DNA from: Escherichia coli
GTDB lineage: Bacteria > Pseudomonadota > Gammaproteobacteria > Enterobacterales > Enterobacteriaceae
NCBI RefSeq assembly: GCF_013315695.1
Contig: NZ_CP054353.1
Length of the DNA: 64,000 nucleotides
Strand: one strand, 5' to 3'
In this document: positions 8,517 to 24,249 of the stretch, in pieces
Position numbering within the stretch: the first letter of the stretch is position 1
Layout: each line of letters begins with the position of its first letter
Translations under genes and position numbers: made by a program
Notes under the pieces: model-generated
The model's database searches: none
What the model was told of the DNA's origin: nothing
Seen by the model: only the letters and a program-made list of their open reading frames with translations

Positions 8517-11500
8517 ATGAGTAAACTTTTGGATCGCTTTCGCTACTTCAAACAAAAGGGCGAAACCTTTGCCGATGGTCACGGACAGGTGATGCATAGC
8601 AACCGCGACTGGGAGGACAGCTATCGCCAGCGTTGGCAGTTCGACAAAATCGTGCGTTCCACCCACGGTGTTAACTGTACAGGCTCCTGTAGCTGGAAAA
8701 TCTACGTTAAAAATGGTCTGGTGACCTGGGAAATCCAACAGACCGACTACCCGCGCACTCGCCCTGACCTGCCCAATCATGAACCTCGCGGCTGCCCGCG
8801 TGGCGCAAGTTACTCCTGGTATCTCTACAGCGCTAACCGTCTGAAATACCCGCTCATTCGTAAACGACTGATTGAACTGTGGCGCGAAGCCCTCAAGCAA
8901 CACAGCGATCCGGTACTGGCGTGGGCATCGATTATGAACGATCCGCAAAAGTGCCTGAGCTACAAACAAGTGCGTGGGCGCGGCGGGTTTATCCGCTCCA
9001 ACTGGCAGGAGCTAAACCAGCTGATTGCCGCTGCTAACGTCTGGACCATCAAAACTTACGGCCCGGATCGCGTTGCCGGTTTCTCGCCGATCCCGGCGAT
9101 GTCGATGGTTTCTTACGCCGCCGGAACACGTTATCTGTCGCTGTTAGGTGGCACCTGTTTAAGCTTCTACGACTGGTATTGCGACCTGCCGCCCGCCTCG
9201 CCGATGACCTGGGGCGAGCAAACCGACGTACCGGAATCTGCCGACTGGTATAACTCCAGTTACATCATCGCCTGGGGGTCTAACGTACCGCAGACACGTA
9301 CGCCGGACGCCCATTTCTTTACCGAAGTACGCTACAAAGGCACTAAAACCATCGCTATTACCCCTGACTACTCTGAAGTGGCCAAATTGTGCGACCAGTG
9401 GCTGGCACCGAAACAAGGCACTGATAGTGCCCTGGCAATGGCAATGGGCCATGTCATTTTAAAAGAGTTTCATCTCGATAATCCCAGCGATTATTTTATC
9501 AACTACTGCCGCCGCTACAGCGACATGCCGATGCTGGTAATGCTGGAACCTCGCGACGACGGCAGCTACGTACCCGGGCGCATGATCCGCGCGTCTGACC
9601 TGGTAGATGGACTGGGCGAAAGCAACAATCCGCAGTGGAAAACCGTGGCGGTTAATACCGCAGGTGAACTGGTGGTGCCGAACGGTTCGATTGGTTTTCG
9701 CTGGGGAGAAAAAGGCAAATGGAATCTGGAATCCATTGCCGCCGGTACGGAAACCGAATTGTCGTTAACTCTGCTCGGTCAACATGATGCCGTTGCAGGC
9801 GTGGCCTTCCCCTACTTTGGCGGCATTGAAAATCCGCATTTTCGCCGCGTAAAACACAATCCGGTCCTGGTGCGCCAATTGCCCGTTAAAAACCTGACAT
9901 TAGCCGATGGCAACACCTGTCCGGTCGTCAGCGTTTATGATTTGGTACTGGCGAATTATGGCCTCGATCGCGGGCTGGAAGATGAAAACAGCGCGAAAGA
10001 TTACGCTGAAATCAAACCGTACACCCCAGCCTGGGGTGAGCAAATTACCGGCGTGCCGCGCCAGTATATTGAAACCATCGCCCGTGAATTTGCCGATACC
10101 GCCCATAAAACGCATGGGCGTTCGATGATTATTCTCGGTGCTGGCGTCAACCATTGGTATCACATGGACATGAACTACCGCGGGATGATCAATATGCTGA
10201 TCTTCTGCGGTTGTGTCGGGCAAAGCGGTGGCGGCTGGGCACACTATGTCGGTCAGGAAAAACTGCGCCCGCAAACCGGCTGGCTGCCTCTGGCTTTTGC
10301 GCTCGACTGGAACCGACCACCGCGCCAGATGAACAGCACCTCGTTTTTCTACAATCATTCCAGCCAATGGCGCTATGAAAAAGTCTCTGCTCAGGAGTTA
10401 CTTTCACCGCTTGCCGATGCCAGTAAGTACAGCGGTCATCTGATTGATTTCAACGTTCGCGCCGAACGTATGGGCTGGCTACCTTCTGCGCCGCAGTTGG
10501 GGCGTAATCCGCTCGGGATTAAAGCTGAAGCCGACAAGGCCGGATTATCTCCCACAGAATTCACCACCCAGGCGCTGAAATCGGGCGATTTACGTATGGC
10601 CTGCGAACAACCCGATAGCGGCAGCAATCATCCGCGTAATTTGTTTGTCTGGCGTTCTAACCTGCTTGGTTCCTCCGGCAAAGGCCACGAGTATATGCAG
10701 AAGTATCTGCTGGGGACCGAAAGCGGGATTCAGGGCGAGGAACTCGGTGCCAGCGACGGGATCAAACCGGAAGAAGTCGAGTGGCAAACTGCGGCGATTG
10801 AAGGCAAGCTCGACCTGCTGGTGACGCTCGACTTCCGCATGTCCAGTACCTGCCTGTTCTCCGATATCGTTCTGCCCACCGCCACCTGGTACGAAAAAGA
10901 CGATATGAACACCTCGGATATGCATCCGTTTATTCATCCGCTTTCTGCGGCGGTCGATCCGGCGTGGGAATCACGCAGCGACTGGGAAATCTACAAAGGT
11001 ATCGCCAAAGCATTTTCGCAACTGTGCGTGGGTCATCTTGGCAAAGAAACCGACGTGGTATTACAACCACTGCTGCATGACTCTCCGGCAGAACTCTCCC
11101 AGCCGTGTGAAGTGCTCGACTGGCGCAAAGGCGAATGCGATCTAATCCCGGGTAAAACCGCGCCCAATATTGTGGCGGTGGAACGCGACTACCCTGCTAC
11201 CTATGAACGCTTTACCTCGCTCGGGCCATTGATGGACAAACTTGGCAACGGCGGTAAAGGGATTTCGTGGAATACCCAGGATGAAATCGATTTCCTCGGC
11301 AAACTCAACTACACCAAGCGTGAAGGCCCGGCACAGGGGCGTCCGCTGATTGACACCGCCATTGACGCATCAGAAGTGATTCTGGCTCTTGCACCGGAAA
11401 CCAACGGTCATGTTGCAGTCAAAGCGTGGCAGGCGCTGGGCGAGATCACCGGACGCGAACATACCCATCTGGCGCTGCACAAAGAGGACGAGAAGATTCG

Positions 11501-17258: not shown

Positions 17259-17828
17259 GTGAGCCAATTCATTCCCGTCGAATTACACCATGCCAGCCGT
17301 CTGTTAAATCATGGCCCAACTGTCTTGATCACCAGTTTCGATGAGCAATCCCAGCGGCGTAACATTATGGCTGCAGCCTGGTCAATGCCGGTGGAGTTTG
17401 AACCTCCACGCGTCGCGATTGTGGTAGATAAGTCGACATGGACCAGGGAGTTGATTGAGCGTAACGGTAAATTTGGCATCGTTATCCCAGGCGTTGCAGC
17501 GACTAACTGGACGTGGGCAGTGGGAAGTGTATCTGGGCGTGAAGAGGATAAATTTAATTGCTATGGCATTCCGGTGGTGGAAGGTCCGGTGCTTGGTTTG
17601 CCACTTGTTGAAGAGAAATGTCTGGCGTGGATGGAGTGCCGATTGCTACCAGCGACTTCCGCGCAAGAGAAATACGACACGCTGTTTGGCGAAGTGGTAT
17701 CAGCAGCGGCAGACGCACGGGTATTTGTCGAAGGCCGCTGGCAGTTTGATGATGATAAGCTCAATACGTTGCATCATTTAGGCGCTGGCACGTTTGTTAC
17801 CAGCGGCAAGCGTGTTACGGCAGGTTAA
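17259..17828 (+). CDS. yddH: Flavin reductase-like domain protein
   Basis: 189 aa, synteny. Confidence 0.8.
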   Translation: MSQFIPVELHHASRLLNHGPTVLITSFDEQSQRRNIMAAAWSMPVEFEPPRVAIVVDKSTWTRELIERNGKFGIVIPGVAATNWTWAVGSVSGREEDKFNCYGIPVVEGPVLGLPLVEEKCLAWMECRLLPATSAQEKYDTLFGEVVSAAADARVFVEGRWQFDDDKLNTLHHLGAGTFVTSGKRVTAG

Positions 17829-17831
17829 GCA

Positions 17832-18059
17832 TTACATGCTGTAACCAGGTTTCTTTATCAGCGTCTCCATTTGGGGCGCAATTTCGGCGTCCCAGATAGC
17901 TTGCCATGATTCTGGTTGAATCTGCTGTAGAGCAATGCTTATCGAACTGTCTTTACTGTTCAGATGGCGAATAATAACGTCGGTAATATCTGCAGCAAGT
18001 GCTGCTTTTTGTTGTTCGTCCAGTTCACGTGGAAAACATTTAATGTCTATGTGCGGCAT
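17832..18059 (-). CDS. pptA: 4-oxalocrotonate tautomerase-family protein
   Basis: Starts [18 protein letters not shown] (internal Met of track ORF 17832..18098); N-terminal Pro after Met typical of tautomerases. Confidence 0.85.
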
Positions 18060-18363
18060 GATTGTGCTCCTTTTGAAAGATGTCAGTAAAATTAACACAC
18101 GTTGTGAATGTTATGTGTCCGGTGATGCTTTTTTACGGCAATAATGCCTACTTGAATTTGTACAGGTTTGTACTACACCCTTTTAAATAAAGCGCCAACA
18201 AAAACGTCAACTTGCAGAATATATTCTTCGCCAACATGCCATTAAGAAAACATCAAGTTCCCAGCTTGCCAATTTATTAACGCCCATTATAGTTATTCTT
18301 GCCCTCACAAAAATTTTCATCCGTAATTACCCCCAATAAAAGTCCATTCTGGAGACGCTTAAG

Positions 18364-18978
18364 ATGCAGCTTAATCATATTGTTAAAAGTCTGCTAATAA
18401 CGGGATTATTCACCACCAGTTCTTTGCCACTCCTCGCGGCGGAAGCCCCTAAAGACGCCACCGCAGCCACGCAACAAGCAAACAATTTACTCTACAACCA
18501 GTTGCCGTTTTCTGATAACACTGACTTTACTGATGCCCATAAAGGTTTTGTTGCCCCTATCCCTCAAGACGTGATTAAGGGCGAAAAAGGAAATGTTATC
18601 TGGGATCCACAACAATACGCTTTTATTAAAGAAGGTGATAAAGCCCCTGATACGGTGAATCCAAGTTTATGGCGTCAGGCGCAACTGATAAATATCAGCG
18701 GGTTATTCGAAGTAACTGAAGGTGTCTATCAGATTCGCAATCTCGATCTATCAAATATGACCATCATTGAAGGCAAAGAGGGTATTACCATCGTTGATCC
18801 CCTTGTTTCAGCAGAAACAGCCAAAGTGGGTATGGATCTCTATTACAAAAATCGCGACAAAAAACCGGTAGTAGCGGTTATCTACACACACAGTCATGTC
18901 GATCACTACGGTGGTGTTCGCGGCGTAATTGATGAAGCTGACGTTAAATCAGGCAAAGTTAAAATCTACGCGCCAGCC
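18364..18978 (+). pseudogene. Alkyl/aryl-sulfatase (YjcS/BDS1-like, metallo-beta-lactamase fold) N-terminal fragment, interrupted by IS1
   Basis: Signal peptide plus MBL motif THSHVDHYGG; reading frame runs directly into IS1 left end. Confidence 0.75.
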
Positions 18979-19033
18979 GGTGATGCTGCCAACTTACTGA
19001 TTTAGTGTATGATGGTGTTTTTGAGGTGCTCCA

Positions 19034-19309
19034 GTGGCTTCTGTTTCTATCAGCTGTCCCTCCTGTTCAGCTACTGACGGGGTGGTGCGTAACGGCAAAA
19101 GCACCGCCGGACATCAGCGCTATCTCTGCTCTCACTGCCGTAAAACATGGCAACTGCAGTTCACTTACACCGCTTCTCAACCCGGTACGCACCAGAAAAT
19201 CATTGATATGGCCATGAATGGCGTTGGATGCCGGGCAACAGCCCGCATTATGGGCGTTGGCCTCAACACGATTTTACGTCACTTAAAAAACTCAGGCCGC
19301 AGTCGGTAA
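19034..19309 (+). CDS. insA: IS1 InsA
   Basis: 91-aa [43 protein letters not shown]. Confidence 0.95.
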
Positions 19310-19731
19310 CCTCGCGCATACAGCCGGGCAGTGACGTCATCGTCTGCGCGGAAATGGACGAACAGTGGGGCTATGTCGGGGCTAAATCGCGCCAGCGCTG
19401 GCTGTTTTACGCGTATGACAGGCTCCGGAAGACGGTTGTTGCGCACGTATTCGGTGAACGCACTATGGCGACGCTGGGGCGTCTTATGAGCCTGCTGTCA
19501 CCCTTTGACGTGGTGATATGGATGACGGATGGCTGGCCGCTGTATGAATCCCGCCTGAAGGGAAAGCTGCACGTAATCAGCAAGCGATATACGCAGCGAA
19601 TTGAGCGGCATAACCTGAATCTGAGGCAGCACCTGGCACGGCTGGGACGGAAGTCGCTGTCGTTCTCAAAATCGGTGGAGCTGCATGACAAAGTCATCGG
19701 GCATTATCTGAACATAAAACACTATCAATAA
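19228..19731 (+). CDS. insB: IS1 InsB (transposase made as InsAB by -1 frameshift)
   Basis: 167-aa ORF overlapping insA; A-run slippery site upstream. Confidence 0.95.
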
Positions 19732-19746
19732 GTTGGAGTCATTACC

Positions 19747-20721
19747 GAAGCTCTCAATTTATGGGGAGATAAAGCCGAGATTATTCTCGCTCAACATCAC
19801 TGGCCAACCTGGGGCAACGATAACGTGGTCAAACTGCTTAAAAGCCAGCGTGATTTGTATCGTTACATCAATGATCAAACTCTGCGTATGGCAAATCAAG
19901 GGATGACCCGTGATGAAATTGCCGCAAACTTTAAACTGCCCTCTTCACTGGCTAATACCTGGGCGAATCGCGGCTATTACGGTTCGGTAAGTCATGACGT
20001 GAAAGCAACTTACGTGCTTTATCTCGGCTGGTTTGATGGTAACCCCGCGACGCTTGATGAACTGCCGCCAGAAGAAGGCGCAAAAAAATTCGTCGAGTAT
20101 ATGGGCGGTGCTGATGCCATTTTACAGAAAGCCAAACAGGATTATGACCAGGGTAATTTCCGCTGGGTTGCCCAAGTTGTTAGTAAGGTGGTGTTTACCG
20201 ATCCAAACAACCAGGCAGCGAGAAATCTGGAAGCTGATGCGCTTGAGCAGTTAGGCTATCAGGCTGAATCTGGGCCGTGGCGTAATTTCTATCTCACTGG
20301 CGCACAGGAATTGCGTAATGGCGTACAAAAATTACCAACACCAAATACTGCCAGCCCAGACACCGTGCGTGCGATGACGCCGGAGATGTTCTTTGATTAT
20401 CTTGCCGTCCATATTAATGGTGAGAAAGCGGCAGATGCCAAAACCGTGTTGAATTTCGATTTTGGTGAAGATGGCGGCACCTATAAAGTGGAGCTTGAAA
20501 ATGGTGTTCTCAATCATACCGCTGGTGTAGAGGCTTCGGATGCTGATGCCACTATCACTCTGTCTCGTGATGTATTGAACAAAATTGTACTGAAAGAAGA
20601 GACGCTGAAAGAAGCCACGGCCAAAGAAGATGTCAAAATTACTGGCAATGCGGAAAAACTCAACGAGCTGTTAGGTTATATGGATAATTTTGAATTTTGG
20701 TTCAATATAGTGACACCATAA
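19747..20721 (+). pseudogene. Alkyl/aryl-sulfatase C-terminal fragment (dimerisation and SCP2-like region)
   Basis: Open frame from IS1 junction through track ORF 19825..20721; same gene family as N-terminal fragment. Confidence 0.7.
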
Positions 20722-20733
20722 ATTTACTGCATA

Positions 20734-20758
20734 CCGGGCAGGTATCCTGCCCTTTTTT
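20734..20758 (+). terminator. Rho-independent terminator after sulfatase fragment
   Basis: ccgggcagg-tatc-cctgccc followed by TTTTTT. Confidence 0.5.
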
Positions 20759-20767
20759 GGTTAAAAA

Positions 20768-21865
20768 ATGGCTGAACGAAGAAAAACGCATCACTCATGG
20801 AAAACCCGCCGCGATATGGTTATTCGCGGCATGACGATTAGTTTGCCATGGTTTGCTTTTATCAATGTCAGTTTTGCATTGATAATTTTGCTGCGCCGTG
20901 TTCTGTTTAATGACCTTACTCCACCCTGGTTAAATGAAAAAAGCCTTATACATTCTATTGATATATCTGCAACGGGTATTCTGCTGATTTGCAGTGGTTT
21001 ACTACTCATCCCTCGGCAAAAAACATTACCTATCCAGGTGCTATTAGTTGCCCTGAGCCTGCTATGGTCATGGTGTAGTTATCACTTTATTGCGTACTGG
21101 ACGCTGCAGTTTGCTTATCCACTATGTGTATTATTAATGCTTAGTGGCGTTATCGCACTTTATTTCCATACCCCATCATTGCTCGCATTTGTCATTCCCT
21201 TATGGTTCACCACTCCAATAGCGAGTCTTATGCTTAATCAACAGATCAATATTCATTTTGCTGTTGTATGGTGTATTTTTTCACTGGCGCTATATGGTGG
21301 GCGACTCATTTTGTTACGTTGGTTTGAAGAAGCATGGGTACAAAACAGTTATAACAACCAGTTAATTAATCGCCTTGATGCATTAGCACATCGTGATCCT
21401 TTAACTGGGATAGCAAACCGACGTGCAATGAACAGTATCTTACACGACGCGATAGATAACGGCGGGTCATTTGCTCTTATTATGCTGGATGTCGATTTTT
21501 TTAAACGTTACAACGACACTTACGGGCATCCTGCTGGGGATCGTTGTCTAATACAAGTTGCCGACGCTCTACAGCGTTCAACTCGCCAGTCGGAGGATGT
21601 TGTTGTCCGTTATGGTGGCGAAGAGTTTGTCATCATACTTTTTAATGCAACATTGCCGGAAGCAGAGACGGTAGCAGCCAGAGTGAAGCAAGAACTTAAA
21701 CTGGCAGCTATCCCGCATCAGGCATCTGCTGTTAATGCATTCGTTACGGTTAGTCAGGGGATTACCTGTTCTGCTCCCGCAAAAACGGCTGAACAAATTA
21801 TTTCAGATGCCGACGCTGCGTTATACCGGGCGAAAGAAAGTGGGCGAAATCGATGGGAAAAATAA
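20768..21865 (+). CDS. Membrane-anchored diguanylate cyclase (GGDEF domain, GGEEF active site)
   Basis: N-terminal hydrophobic segments then RYGGEEF and DGC domain motifs; not a K-12 gene at this locus; start codon uncertain. Confidence 0.8.
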   Translation: MAERRKTHHSWKTRRDMVIRGMTISLPWFAFINVSFALIILLRRVLFNDLTPPWLNEKSLIHSIDISATGILLICSGLLLIPRQKTLPIQVLLVALSLLWSWCSYHFIAYWTLQFAYPLCVLLMLSGVIALYFHTPSLLAFVIPLWFTTPIASLMLNQQINIHFAVVWCIFSLALYGGRLILLRWFEEAWVQNSYNNQLINRLDALAHRDPLTGIANRRAMNSILHDAIDNGGSFALIMLDVDFFKRYNDTYGHPAGDRCLIQVADALQRSTRQSEDVVVRYGGEEFVIILFNATLPEAETVAARVKQELKLAAIPHQASAVNAFVTVSQGITCSAPAKTAEQIISDADAALYRAKESGRNRWEK

Positions 21866-22483
21866 TTAAATGATTCCATTCCTCTTTAGTATCCCTTTTA
21901 GCTTTGGTATCTGACATACAGCATCAGCAATCGCATTGATGTTCGGGGCATTATCCTGAAACCATTCGTGTCCCGGTCCCCATGTGCGCATGGTGCAGAG
22001 ATAACAGTCCACCAGCGTTAGTTGCTCTCCAAACACATACGGTTCAGCGGTCAATTGTGAATTCAGCCAGATATAAAGCGATTTACGATATTCAATAACA
22101 TTATTCTTTAACTGTTCGGGTGCGTCAGGAGCCCAACGCTTAGGGTAATCGGCGAAAGTGAACGTTGGATAGACATTAGCAACCAGCCAGACCAATAACC
22201 GTTGAAACTGCTAGCGTTCGGTGCGCCCAACCGGTGGCGCAAGGTCCGGGCGACGATCGAGAACCATCAATGCAATCGCCGCTGTCTCCGTCATAATCTC
22301 GTCATTTTCCAGCGCCAGTGTCGGAATCTGACACAACGGGTTCAGGGTTTTCAATAAATCGCGTGAAGTTCCCTCGTGGTCAAAACCACTGACATCAACG
22401 AACTGATAAGGAATATCAGCCAGTGTTAGCATCATCTCACTGATTGTAGTGCCCCATCCGGGTACGCCATACACCTTAATCAT
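21866..22483 (-). pseudogene. yncG: Glutathione S-transferase-like protein with in-frame amber (TAG) codon at 22211..22213
   Basis: Track ORFs 22211..22483 and 21866..22195 are in the same frame separated by a single TAG; together they cover GST N- and C-domains. Confidence 0.8.
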
Positions 22484-22749
22484 ATGCCCCTCACAATCTT
22501 TTAAAGATTAAGTCTAGGACAGCACACAGGTTAACCAGCAAAAGTATTTGTCATTTTTTCGTCAGTTGTATTATTCCCCTTCAGGATTGTAAGGGGATGT
22601 TTTGCATCGTTTATCGATAACGGGTAGGATGCTGCGCCGATAGTTTTATACCCATAAAGAATAATGGTGATAACTATCATCGCCAGGATGAATAAACATT
22701 GTTCATGGCAACTTATATGACTTTTTCATTAAAGCAATCAGGGAGAGCA

Positions 22750-24249
22750 ATGAGTAAACACGACACCGACACTTCAGATCAACACGCCGCGAAACGCCGC
22801 TGGCTTAATGCCCACGAAGAGGGGTATCACAAAGCGATGGGCAATCGCCAGGTACAGATGATCGCCATTGGCGGCGCGATTGGCACCGGCTTGTTTTTAG
22901 GTGCAGGAGCCCGACTGCAAATGGCGGGTCCAGCACTGGCACTGGTTTATTTGATCTGCGGCCTGTTTTCATTTTTTATTCTGCGTGCATTGGGTGAGCT
23001 GGTGTTACACCGCCCTTCCAGTGGCAGTTTTGTCTCTTATGCCCGTGAGTTTTTGGGTGAGAAAGCCGCTTATGTTGCTGGCTGGATGTACTTCATCAAC
23101 TGGGCGATGACGGGGATTGTTGATATTACCGCCGTCGCTCTGTATATGCATTACTGGGGTGCGTTTGGCGGCGTGCCGCAGTGGGTCTTTGCGCTCGCTG
23201 CGCTGACCATCGTTGGCACCATGAATATGATTGGTGTGAAATGGTTTGCGGAGATGGAGTTCTGGTTTGCGCTTATTAAAGTGCTCGCCATCGTGACCTT
23301 TTTGGTCGTGGGTACAGTGTTCCTCGGTAGCGGTCAGCCGCTGGATGGCAACGCCACTGGCTTTCATTTAATTACCGATAACGGCGGCTTTTTCCCCCAC
23401 GGTTTGCTGCCTGCGCTGGTGTTGATTCAGGGCGTAGTGTTTGCTTTTGCCTCCATTGAAATGGTGGGTACAGCGGCCGGAGAATGTAAAGATCCGCAGA
23501 CCATGGTGCCTAAAGCGATTAACAGTGTGATTTGGCGTATTGGTCTGTTTTACGTCGGCTCCGTGGTGTTGCTGGTTATGTTATTGCCGTGGAGCGCGTA
23601 TCAGGCGGGGCAAAGTCCGTTCGTGACGTTTTTCTCTAAACTGGGTGTGCCATATATCGGCAGCATTATGAACATTGTGGTGCTGACCGCTGCCCTCTCC
23701 AGCCTGAATTCAGGTCTGTACTGCACCGGGCGTATTCTGCGCTCGATGGCGATGGGCGGTTCCGCACCGAGTTTTATGGCGAAAATGAGTCGTCAGCATG
23801 TGCCGTATGCCGGGATTCTGGCGACACTGGTTGTGTATGTCGTCGGCGTATTCCTCAACTATCTGGTGCCGTCGCGCGTATTTGAGATTGTGTTGAACTT
23901 CGCGTCGCTGGGAATCATCGCTTCATGGGCGTTTATCATCGTGTGCCAGATGCGCCTGCGTAAAGCGATTAAAGAAGGCAAAGCAGCGGATGTCAGTTTT
24001 AAACTGCCTGGCGCGCCCTTCACTTCCTGGCTGACATTACTGTTTTTACTGAGTGTCCTGGTGCTGATGGCGTTCGATTACCCGAACGGGACTTATACTA
24101 TCGCGGCGCTGCCGATTATCGGTATTCTGCTGGTTATAGGCTGGTTTGGTGTGCGCAAACGCGTTGCTGAAATTCACAGCACTGCGCCAGTCGTCGAGGA
24201 AGATGAAGAAAAACAGGAAATTGTGTTTAAACCTGAAACGGCGAGTTAA
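22750..24249 (+). CDS. ansP: L-asparagine permease (APC family)
   Basis: Start MSKHDTDTSDQ inside track ORF 22699..24249; 499 aa. Confidence 0.9.
   Translation: MSKHDTDTSDQHAAKRRWLNAHEEGYHKAMGNRQVQMIAIGGAIGTGLFLGAGARLQMAGPALALVYLICGLFSFFILRALGELVLHRPSSGSFVSYAREFLGEKAAYVAGWMYFINWAMTGIVDITAVALYMHYWGAFGGVPQWVFALAALTIVGTMNMIGVKWFAEMEFWFALIKVLAIVTFLVVGTVFLGSGQPLDGNATGFHLITDNGGFFPHGLLPALVLIQGVVFAFASIEMVGTAAGECKDPQTMVPKAINSVIWRIGLFYVGSVVLLVMLLPWSAYQAGQSPFVTFFSKLGVPYIGSIMNIVVLTAALSSLNSGLYCTGRILRSMAMGGSAPSFMAKMSRQHVPYAGILATLVVYVVGVFLNYLVPSRVFEIVLNFASLGIIASWAFIIVCQMRLRKAIKEGKAADVSFKLPGAPFTSWLTLLFLLSVLVLMAFDYPNGTYTIAALPIIGILLVIGWFGVRKRVAEIHSTAPVVEEDEEKQEIVFKPETAS

Follow-up and report, generated by a model that had tools for sequence, protein, structure and literature searches.

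The interval between pptA and yncG in Escherichia coli MSB1_4I contains a gene for a membrane GGDEF protein, of a kind that the same interval of K-12 does not contain. This locus raises the question of whether the gene is a strain-specific addition, as the original prediction from the DNA had it, or an old resident lost elsewhere, and whether it encodes a working enzyme. The window analysed here is the whole stretch of 64,000 nucleotides (RefSeq assembly GCF_013315695.1, contig NZ_CP054353.1). We consider it likely, with good confidence, that the product of the gene is a MASE5-GGDEF diguanylate cyclase of the inner membrane, that the gene itself is ancestral at the yddH/pptA-yncG locus and was lost in K-12-like strains, and that it is very probably dgcY. 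The gene is intact, already annotated in RefSeq and ordinary rather than new, and its mechanism shows no sign of anything unusual.

The ORF of 365 codons is real (Table 1), and it is relatively AT-rich, as had been stated, with 43.4% GC against 49.4% for the whole window. Gene order in K-12 is yncG-yncH-rhsE(pseudo)-ydcD-yncO-yncI(pseudo)-ydcC-pptA; the gene content previously claimed for this interval is correct and includes no GGDEF gene. The 6.1 kb from yncH to ydcC occupy the position of a segment of the window that has no K-12 counterpart, and no remnant of this segment was found in the K-12 locus. Both neighbours of the cyclase gene are damaged in this strain. The upstream alkyl/aryl-sulfatase gene, which measures 1977 nt where intact (locus L001), is split by IS1A, and the downstream yncG carries a CAG to TAG change at codon 91 (nt 22211..22213). 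No prophage genes were found in the flanks of the cyclase gene, from pptA and the sulfatase gene to yncG.

Table 1. Features of the cyclase locus, in window coordinates
Feature	Coordinates	Strand	Basis or remark
Segment without K-12 counterpart	18149..21867	.	blastn breakpoints
Periplasmic alkyl/aryl-sulfatase gene, 5' fragment	18364..18978	+	pseudogene in this strain (E. coli MSB1_4I)
IS1A, 768 bp, inside sulfatase gene	18979..19746	+	no target duplication; ~380 bp of sulfatase gene missing
Alkyl/aryl-sulfatase gene, 3' fragment	19747..20721	+	
Intrinsic terminator of upstream sulfatase gene	20736..20758	+	stem 20736..20752 and T-run
MASE5-GGDEF diguanylate cyclase ORF, 365 aa	20768..21865	+	stop TAA 21863..21865; ORF list
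N-terminal 16-codon extension, MAERRKTHHSWKTRRD	20768..20815	+	excluded by RefSeq; probably translated
Alternative start Met17	20816..20818	+	used by RefSeq/PGAP (WP_000236738.1, 349 aa)
MASE5 membrane domain, residues 25-206	20840..21385	+	Pfam PF17178, E 7e-44; hydropathy; AF2
GGDEF catalytic domain, residues 207-362	21386..21853	+	Pfam PF00990, E 2e-48; TIGR00254; PDB alignments to ImcA, WspR, SiaD
Non-canonical I-site region R273-Q-S-E-D277 (RxxxD, not RxxD)	21584..21598	+	alignments to WspR, DgcT
GGEEF active-site motif, residues 283-287	21614..21628	+	invariant in 42-sequence alignment A3
yncG (glutathione S-transferase homologue)	21866..22483	-	convergent; abuts cyclase stop, zero spacer

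The doubt about the start codon was justified. Met17, proposed as an alternative, is the RefSeq start and is invariant in 18 Enterobacterales homologues, yet comparative evidence is on the side of the upstream ATG. This ATG is the first possible start, since the reading frame is closed by a TAA two codons before it. At the protein level, the basic cluster of the extension and its W11 are conserved across genera, and interspecies indels preserve the reading frame (+6 nt in locus L007 and in Citrobacter koseri). The dN/dS of the extension is 0.15-0.24, calculated from few sites, and the first helix of the AlphaFold2 (AF2) model begins at residue 14, inside the extension. From these comparisons, translation most likely starts at the upstream ATG, behind an A-rich leader without Shine-Dalgarno sequence; by eye, nothing resembling AGGAGG precedes Met1, Met17 or Met22. 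The RefSeq start probably removes 16 conserved N-terminal residues.

N-terminal hydrophobic segments had been noticed already, and the topology prediction resolved them into six, matched by six helices in the AF2 model (pLDDT 89; residues 14-41, 58-80, 86-109, 116-131, 135-157 and 162-207). They correspond to a MASE5 domain placed N-terminally to GGDEF, the match extending over the full profile (model positions 2-192 of 192). Six transmembrane helices, with nearly no periplasmic loops between them in the model, are followed by a stalk helix with a conserved RWF(E/D)EAW motif, and helix 6 is modelled as running on, as this long stalk, into the cytoplasmic GGDEF domain. The N-terminal tail carries 7 K/R and, being basic, is probably cytoplasmic; hydropathy, this basic tail and the AF2 model together predict a polytopic protein with both ends in the cytoplasm. 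The alignment supplied to AlphaFold was deepened with a 50%-representative search, whose matches, mostly long multi-GGDEF proteins, had no other use.

The catalytic domain is recognized well above threshold (TIGR00254, 158 bits, cutoff 37.4). Residues D241, N249, D250, H254, D258, R281, K356 and R360, as well as the GGEEF motif, are invariant across 42 homologues, and the catalytic residues align with those of WspR, SiaD and ImcA. Metal-, guanine- and phosphate-binding residues are thus all present in D241, N249, D258, R281, K356 and R360, which we take to be the counterparts of D327, N335, D344, R366, K442 and R446 of PleD. The residues needed for condensing two GTP into c-di-GMP are all there, and we expect the membrane GGDEF protein to be active as a diguanylate cyclase, in agreement with the original prediction. 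The inhibitory site departs from the common pattern. The stretch reads RQSED-VVVRY-GGEEF, and RxxD is not found five residues before GG(D/E)EF. RSSD of WspR aligns with QSED of the cyclase, its arginine standing opposite Q274, while RPDD of DgcT can be aligned only through a 1-residue gap. No substitution of R273 or D277 occurs in the MASE5-GGDEF homologues aligned. With the RxxD feedback site replaced by RxxxD, classical product inhibition seems doubtful.

Such an I-site could also be read as a mark of degeneration, the protein serving as receptor for c-di-GMP or as scaffold and not as an enzyme, or else being a Hypr-type maker of another cyclic dinucleotide; we would be very surprised if this were so. 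Hypr GGDEFs have serine at the specificity position. Here the residue is aspartate (D258), which argues for GTP specificity and would speak against the Hypr type. Inactive membrane GGDEF proteins do have precedents in E. coli, for example CdgI/YeaI (PMC4287979), but in the present protein GGEEF and the residues that bind metal, base and phosphate are without exception preserved and invariant, and canonical RxxD, which a c-di-GMP receptor would need, is the one altered motif. We therefore retain an active cyclase as the preferred reading.

As to its identity, the suggestion of dgcX fails on domain type, I-site and locus alike. DgcX has a MASE4 domain of ~270 aa with eight predicted helices and an intact RxxD I-site, and its gene lies beside lambdoid prophages at attB (PMC4287979, PMC10459773); the helix number of MASE4 is eight as predicted by Richter et al. 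(PMC4287979) and six according to Cimdins-Ahne et al. (PMC10459773). DgcX is also very strongly expressed (PMC4287979). The cyclase is not DgcX: its MASE5 domain has six helices, QSED stands where DgcX has RxxD, and its gene lies at yddH/pptA-yncG, not next to DNA of lambdoid prophages (at attB or in the uspF-ompN region). DgcX, DgcT (YcdT) and CdgI (YeaI) likewise join a membrane-embedded N-terminus to GGDEF, and DgcX is also absent from K-12. DgcT, another MASE4 protein, has no N-terminal similarity to the cyclase and shares 35% identity with it in the GGDEF domain only; both DgcX and DgcT have RxxD where the cyclase has RxxxD. A MASE5-bearing paralogue of K-12 DgcF can be dismissed too: DgcF has no MASE5 match, and its 27% identity to the cyclase is confined to the GGDEF domain, the N-termini being dissimilar. 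In direct comparison with these two K-12 proteins, DgcF and DgcT, the gene is no copy of a K-12 cyclase. The E. coli papers searched do not contain the name DgcY, nor do they describe MASE5 or MASE5-GGDEF. Povolotsky and Hengge reportedly described, in 2016, DgcX and DgcY as two membrane-associated cyclases absent from K-12, and the protein, which fits this description and is not DgcX, is presumably the DgcY of the E. coli pangenome. We believe that the gene is very probably the published dgcY.

The cyclase gene is present in 443 of 5426 complete E. coli genomes (~8%) and the sulfatase gene in 442, the cyclase being almost always accompanied by the alkyl-sulfatase gene upstream. Between the cyclase gene and yncG, about 346 of 432 carriers have a Rhs/ISAs1 island. 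The description of the gene as standing in place of Rhs remnants is hence correct for this window compared with K-12 and no general rule, since these carriers have both. Outside E. coli, orthologues occupy the same locus in Escherichia contigs (an E. whittamii-like one, in which the order is pptA-sulfatase-cyclase, and one of an Escherichia sp.) and in C. koseri, where the order is narZYWV-nhoA-yddH-[MASE5-GGDEF]-yncG-ansP; E. ruysiae and E. marmotae carry orthologues as well. A contig scan with GGDEF patterns had at least a handful of true MASE5 loci among the matches listed. Protein identity to the cyclase is 93% in E. whittamii, 80% in Escherichia sp., 78% in E. ruysiae, 76% in E. marmotae and 63% in C. 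koseri. Against three Escherichia orthologues, dN/dS is about 0.2 in both domains, which on sequence grounds places the gene under purifying selection. Orthologues at one locus in other Escherichia and in C. koseri speak for an ancestral gene at this locus that the majority of E. coli have lost, and the label of a strain-specific accessory gene has to be given up.

Low GC and a patchy distribution would fit horizontal transfer too. Recent acquisition as an accessory cyclase, for example on an island with the sulfatase gene replacing a Rhs element, could claim in its favour the GC difference, the small share of carriers and a locus that attracts mobile elements (IS1, ISAs1, Rhs, vgrG). The sulfatase, moreover, shares one 90%-identity cluster with proteins of Citrobacter sedlakii and C. 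amalonaticus, a hint at exchange of sulfatase genes. We nevertheless regard such acquisition as improbable: C. koseri has the gene at the very same position, between flanking genes 74-84% identical in nucleotide sequence, and the Escherichia contigs named above have it there too, with further orthologues in E. ruysiae and E. marmotae; its identity declines in step with the species tree; boundaries marked by an integrase, a tRNA or repeats are absent; and 434 of the 443 E. coli carriers have alleles with at least 99% identity.

How the ancestral gene was lost is indicated by ISAs1. A fragment of this element lies 75 nt past the cyclase gene in DETEC-P649; in EC28 its terminus, CAGGGCAAGATTACGAAAGCCCGCTCCCCG, truncates the cyclase to 328 aa; and in K-12 the same terminus abuts the upstream region of pptA, precisely where the homology breaks off. 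An ISAs1 end beyond the gene, inside it and beside pptA suggests loss by nested IS-adjacent deletions, a series that we infer from these three present-day arrangements. K-12-like loss probably occurred via deletions adjoining the ISAs1 (H-repeat) end of a Rhs/T6SS-effector island inserted beside the cyclase gene. The locus would illustrate cleanly how a gene is lost when deletions spread out from an ISAs1/Rhs island. As an ancestral gene lost elsewhere, and not an acquired virulence island, the cyclase gene also has to be read differently when present in pathogens. The few carriers listed by name include one isolate of ST38 and several strains of avian-pathogenic E. coli (APEC); the cyclase could hence contribute to strain differences in biofilm behaviour.

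The hairpin just 5' of the ATG, and the lack of an evident promoter or strong ribosome-binding site, were borne out. The terminator has a stem of 7 bp, 6 of them G-C, and a 3-nt loop followed by TTTTTT, and 9 nt separate the end of the T-run from the ATG. A promoter scan of the + strand gave no sigma-70-like site 5' of the cyclase gene; the single promoter-like site (20859..20886) falls inside the ORF. The 86-nt region around the terminator folds overall no better than shuffled sequences (z = -1.5), so that a more extensive leader structure is not indicated, and no riboswitch or sRNA was found in 17500..23000 (Rfam, E <= 1). Expression is probably low, through read-through of the sulfatase terminator or from a weak unrecognised promoter.

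The absence of a promoter-like site, the terminator so close to the ATG and the damage on both sides (IS1 and a ~380-bp deletion in the sulfatase gene, a nonsense codon in yncG) suggest that the locus may be decaying and that the cyclase may be silent here, an intact ORF left as a transcriptional orphan. Other strains have IS1 within the gene (H1) or a shortened product of 328 or 243 aa. An unexpressed relic seems unlikely to us all the same. The ORF matches exactly the allele that is commonest in E. coli, found on at least 1000 contigs, and its dN/dS amounts to long-term constraint. The hairpin is kept in three other Escherichia loci, and a terminator with short spacer conserved across Escherichia species indicates a normal expression context. 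Weak expression from poor promoters is, besides, common to many E. coli cyclase genes (PMC4287979). A constrained, weakly expressed gene is the reading we prefer.

It may also be imagined that the periplasmic sulfatase and the cyclase form a conserved Escherichia-specific module coupled by partial terminator read-through, in which MASE5, buried nearly completely in the membrane, would sense membrane-active alkyl sulfates or their alcohol products and RxxxD would make the enzyme insensitive to inhibition by its product. If true, this would link detergent-like gut compounds to c-di-GMP and biofilm formation. We give the idea very little credence. Linkage of the two genes outside Escherichia was not found in E. 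cloacae, Hafnia or C. koseri, the last having no sulfatase gene. More soberly, the cyclase is one further uncharacterised source of c-di-GMP for ~8% of E. coli genomes and other Escherichia, of limited importance, although functional work of any kind on it would be new.

The closest known systems are the MASE5-GGDEF proteins of Enterobacterales (PF17178 and PF00990), which have the same full-length two-domain architecture and GGEEF; examples are DGC3134 of Pantoea sp. YR343 and EL-703 of Enterobacter ludwigii. Identity is ~50% to proteins of Enterobacter, Hafnia, Leclercia, Pantoea and Salmonella indica. On roots as well as in biofilm, the promoter of DGC3134 is active (PMC8294551). The genomic context of other MASE5-GGDEF loci differs, with tynA and feaB/feaR in E. 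cloacae and dehydrogenases in Hafnia. Among solved structures, the best match over the full length is ImcA of Pseudomonas aeruginosa (PDB 8WCN; Foldseek E 9e-15, 370 columns), with a TM-score of 0.47, rmsd of 8 A and 24% identity, so that the likeness of the membrane domains is at the level of fold only; MASE5 alone has no sequence match in the PDB, the ImcA membrane domain included. According to the legends and text of the ImcA paper, the membrane domain of ImcA is required for activity and partner binding. The enzyme is controlled by the iron sensor IsmP; no IsmP-like gene lies near the cyclase gene. ImcA has a flexible hinge where the cyclase model has a continuous stalk helix. It is also a 6TM-GGDEF protein, a homodimer with the membrane domain as dimer interface (8WCN). 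By analogy, the cyclase may work as a homodimer joined by its membrane domain, in which a signal sensed in the membrane, or via a membrane partner, would be passed through the stalk to change the relative placement of the two catalytic domains.

The gene for the GGDEF protein, hereafter the cyclase, is real, intact, of a known kind and already annotated; its unusual features are limited to a non-canonical inhibitory site (I-site) and a likely mis-called start. What the original prediction read from the sequence was all borne out: the ORF, the hydrophobic N-terminus with its GGDEF domain, the GGEEF motif, the terminator and the low GC content (43.4% in the gene, 40.5% in its MASE5 part, 49.4% in the window). 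Among NCBIfam models only the generic GGDEF domain model exceeds its cutoff, and none of the named equivalogs (DgcN, DgcQ, DgcJ, AdrA, DgcZ, others) is near threshold. RefSeq orders the region as pptA, two halves of a sulfatase pseudogene around IS1A, WP_000236738.1, yncG with an internal stop, and ansP. The 349-aa WP_000236738.1, a "GGDEF domain-containing protein" in RefSeq, is present on at least 1000 contigs; other database names are "diguanylate cyclase" and "membrane-associated sensor domain-containing protein".

Features of the cyclase region, in window coordinates
Feature	Position	Details
Periplasmic alkyl/aryl-sulfatase gene	18364..20721	inactivated; stop codon 20719..20721
IS1A	18979..19746	in sulfatase, same orientation as gene
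Terminator hairpin	stem 20736..20752	7 bp, 6 G-C, 3-nt loop; T-run to 20758; 3' of sulfatase stop
Cyclase ORF	20768..21865 (+)	365 codons from Met1
RefSeq start (Met17)	20816	WP_000236738.1
MASE5 membrane-associated sensor domain		residues 25-206; complete; Pfam E 7e-44
GGDEF domain		residues 207-362; complete, after MASE5; Pfam E 2e-48
Terminator-like scan match	21611..21637	inside ORF, over Y-GGEEF-VIIL codons; 3/12 pairs G-C
Cyclase and yncG stop codons	21863..21868	convergent, TAA/TTA; 0 intergenic bases
yncG nonsense change	22211..22213 (-)	CAG to TAG, codon 91

The start is called differently by RefSeq (Met17) and by Prodigal-type callers (Met1). The earlier doubt over it is justified; comparative evidence favours Met1. 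The proteins of Escherichia, Citrobacter, Enterobacter, Salmonella and Hafnia all keep a basic cluster and, six residues ahead of Met17, a Trp, in the pattern ...R/K-R/K...W-x-(T/D/N)-x-x-x-M-V. Between species, the stretch ahead of Met17 differs in length only by whole codons (+6 nt in an Escherichia sp., locus L007, and in C. koseri, for example), codons 2-16 have the same dN/dS as the remaining gene (0.15-0.24, from just 5-15 substitutions), and the first helix predicted by AlphaFold2 starts at residue 14. The N-terminal tail carries 7 Lys/Arg by hydropathy analysis, in keeping with the positive-inside rule for a tail on the cytoplasmic side. Translation thus probably starts at Met1; because Met17 is invariant in 18 of 18 close homologues, both starts may be used.

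An in-frame TAA lies two codons 5' of the Met1 ATG, which follows the terminator T-run by 9 nt. The lack of an evident promoter or ribosome-binding site was confirmed: a consensus scan of the + strand upstream of the gene found no sigma-70-like site, and no Shine-Dalgarno sequence was seen by eye ahead of Met1, Met17 or Met22. Rfam families, including c-di-GMP riboswitches, gave no match in 17500..23000. Since the hairpin, T-run and short A-rich spacer before the ATG are kept in three other Escherichia loci, this arrangement is the gene's normal setting. Expression would most likely rely either on some transcripts reading through from the sulfatase promoter or on a weak promoter within the sulfatase 3' end. 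About 380 bp of the sulfatase gene are deleted at IS1A and the 9-bp target duplication is absent, which suggests an IS1-mediated adjacent deletion. Among 5426 complete E. coli genomes only that of strain MSB1_4I (NZ_LR898874.1), from a human rectal swab taken in Australia, has this junction, and the IS1 may reduce or change read-through into the cyclase. The terminator-like match inside the ORF is a chance one. At the 3' end, the abutting stop codons leave no room for a terminator, and transcription of either gene would continue antisense through its neighbour. The yncG nonsense change, also flagged by RefSeq, has counterparts in frameshifted yncG copies of strains EC28 and DETEC-P649; the gene therefore decays repeatedly.

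The cyclase is present in 443 of the 5426 genomes (434 at ≥99% identity), the sulfatase in 442, K-12-type yncH in 3592 and pptA in 4107. It had been called strain-specific, which does not hold. Orthologues share 93% protein identity in E. whittamii, 80% in unnamed Escherichia spp., 78% in E. ruysiae, 76% in E. marmotae and 63% in Citrobacter koseri; those in Enterobacter, Hafnia, Leclercia, Pantoea and Salmonella indica share about 50%. The C. koseri order is narZYWV-nhoA-yddH-[cyclase]-yncG-ansP, with flanking genes 74-84% identical in nucleotides to the window, and the order in an E. whittamii-like contig, nhoA-yddH-pptA-sulfatase-cyclase, matches that of the window. Together with dN/dS of about 0.2 in both domains against three Escherichia orthologues, this shared locus marks the gene as old at this position and under constraint. 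In Escherichia, yddH is separated from the cyclase by the sulfatase and pptA, which C. koseri lacks there; nor is a sulfatase linked to the cyclase in the C. koseri, E. cloacae or Hafnia loci. In E. cloacae DSM 26481 (4404..10840), a MASE5-GGDEF gene of about 50% identity has feaB/feaR on one side and, on the other, tynA, a primary-amine oxidase gene that the record apparently splits into two ORFs, a context unlike those in Escherichia and Citrobacter. Sulfatases of Citrobacter sedlakii, C. amalonaticus, E. albertii and E. whittamii fall into one 90%-identity cluster with that of the Escherichia locus L007 (282..2255). The sulfatase is thus much closer between the genera than the cyclase, which hints at its horizontal exchange.

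Homology to K-12 ends at window position 18148, some 50 nt upstream of pptA, and restarts in the yncG stop codon at 21868. The K-12 locus retains no detectable trace of the intervening 3.7-kb segment. Replacement of Rhs remnants by the cyclase, as originally proposed, holds for the window and K-12, but DETEC-P649 has both. The cyclase abuts yncG as here, with C-terminus ...RWEK, in just 86 genomes; about 346 match to 21857 and no further, ending ...RWAL as in other Escherichia species. In DETEC-P649, one of the latter, an ISAs1 fragment lies 75 nt past the cyclase, followed by a pentapeptide-repeat gene, an RHS core protein gene, a second ISAs1 and a yncG pseudogene. In EC28 an ISAs1 terminus lies inside the cyclase, giving a 328-aa variant without K356 and R360, followed by a vgrG-PAAR island; the junction sequence, CAGGGCAAGATTACGAAAGCCCGCTCCCCG..., is the ISAs1 (ydcC) terminus that also adjoins the K-12 pptA upstream region at the homology breakpoint. 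The simplest reading of these three arrangements is that a T6SS-effector/Rhs island with H-repeat (ISAs1) ends would have inserted between cyclase and yncG, that deletions from an ISAs1 end would have taken part of the cyclase (EC28), and that a larger one would have removed the whole sulfatase-cyclase pair (K-12). The Rhs-free window could reflect either the ancestral arrangement, which C. koseri shows, or secondary island loss.

T6SS-effector islands with flanking ISAs1 H-repeats have a hot spot at the cyclase-yncG junction (EC28, NZ_CP049101.1, 130..7323, vgrG-PAAR; DETEC-P649, NZ_CP116136.1, 9196..16583, pairing the RHS core protein with a pentapeptide immunity gene), and K-12 rhsE/ydcD/yncI/ydcC looks like a decayed version of one. 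Other inactivated alleles are a cyclase with an IS1 inside it (NZ_CP033635.1), a frameshift variant of 243 aa with 138 member sequences, and a 123-nt 3' remnant standing alone beside a fimbrial usher gene (NZ_OZ546943.1). One copy is recorded on a plasmid.

Across 42 aligned homologues, down to 27% identity, D241, D243, K246, N249, D250, H254, D258, R281, GGEEF (283-287), K356 and R360 are invariant, and they fall on known catalytic positions when aligned by HMMER with ImcA, WspR and SiaD. The specificity position is Asp (D258), the residue that by the Hypr GGDEF rule belongs to c-di-GMP-forming enzymes. The one deviation is the I-site: WspR RSSD aligns with QSED, the arginine lying one residue earlier (R273-Q-S-E-D277), and DgcT RPDD aligns with this region given a one-residue gap. 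R273 and D277 are likewise invariant in the alignment, which makes RxxxD characteristic of the family rather than a lesion.

DgcX, suggested originally as a possible identity, has a ~270-aa, eight-helix domain common to YcdT and YeaI (MASE4) and an intact RxxD, and lies, very highly expressed, beside lambdoid prophages at attB (PMC4287979; PMC10459773). The window cyclase, in contrast, has MASE5 with six predicted helices, RxxxD and a pptA/sulfatase-yncG locus; since domain, I-site and locus all differ, DgcX is rejected. Identity to a K-12 cyclase encoded elsewhere was not found either: the two compared directly, DgcT (35% identity) and DgcF (27%), share the GGDEF domain alone, DgcF giving no MASE5 match, and both are rejected as counterparts. 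The 2016 abstract of Povolotsky and Hengge reportedly adds DgcX and DgcY, both membrane-associated, to the cyclases of the E. coli pangenome. The window gene is very probably already named, and very probably is DgcY; the name is a lead; the literature searched, with the defining and nomenclature papers outside it, gave no description of E. coli DgcY.

Hydropathy gives six segments (about 24-42, 63-81, 88-108, 113-133, 138-156 and 162-183), with 44-62 the sole loop exceeding a few residues. AlphaFold2, run on the 42-sequence alignment (mean pLDDT 89), predicts helices 14-41, 58-80, 86-109, 116-131, 135-157 and 162-207, the last running continuously from the membrane into the GGDEF domain, with a conserved RWF(E/D)EAW motif at its membrane exit. 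No PDB sequence matches MASE5 by itself; the best full-length match among solved structures is P. aeruginosa ImcA (8WCN; E 9e-15, 370 columns, 24% identity, TM-score 0.47). In ImcA, a 6TM-GGDEF homodimer, the membrane domain forms the dimer interface; the Fig. 5a legend describes this domain as necessary for activity, and the text of the paper describes the transmembrane regions as needed for binding the inhibitor IsmP (PMC10904736). By this analogy, the cyclase would be a constitutive membrane dimer with its signal relayed via the stalk, ImcA being a working mechanistic analogy and not a family assignment.
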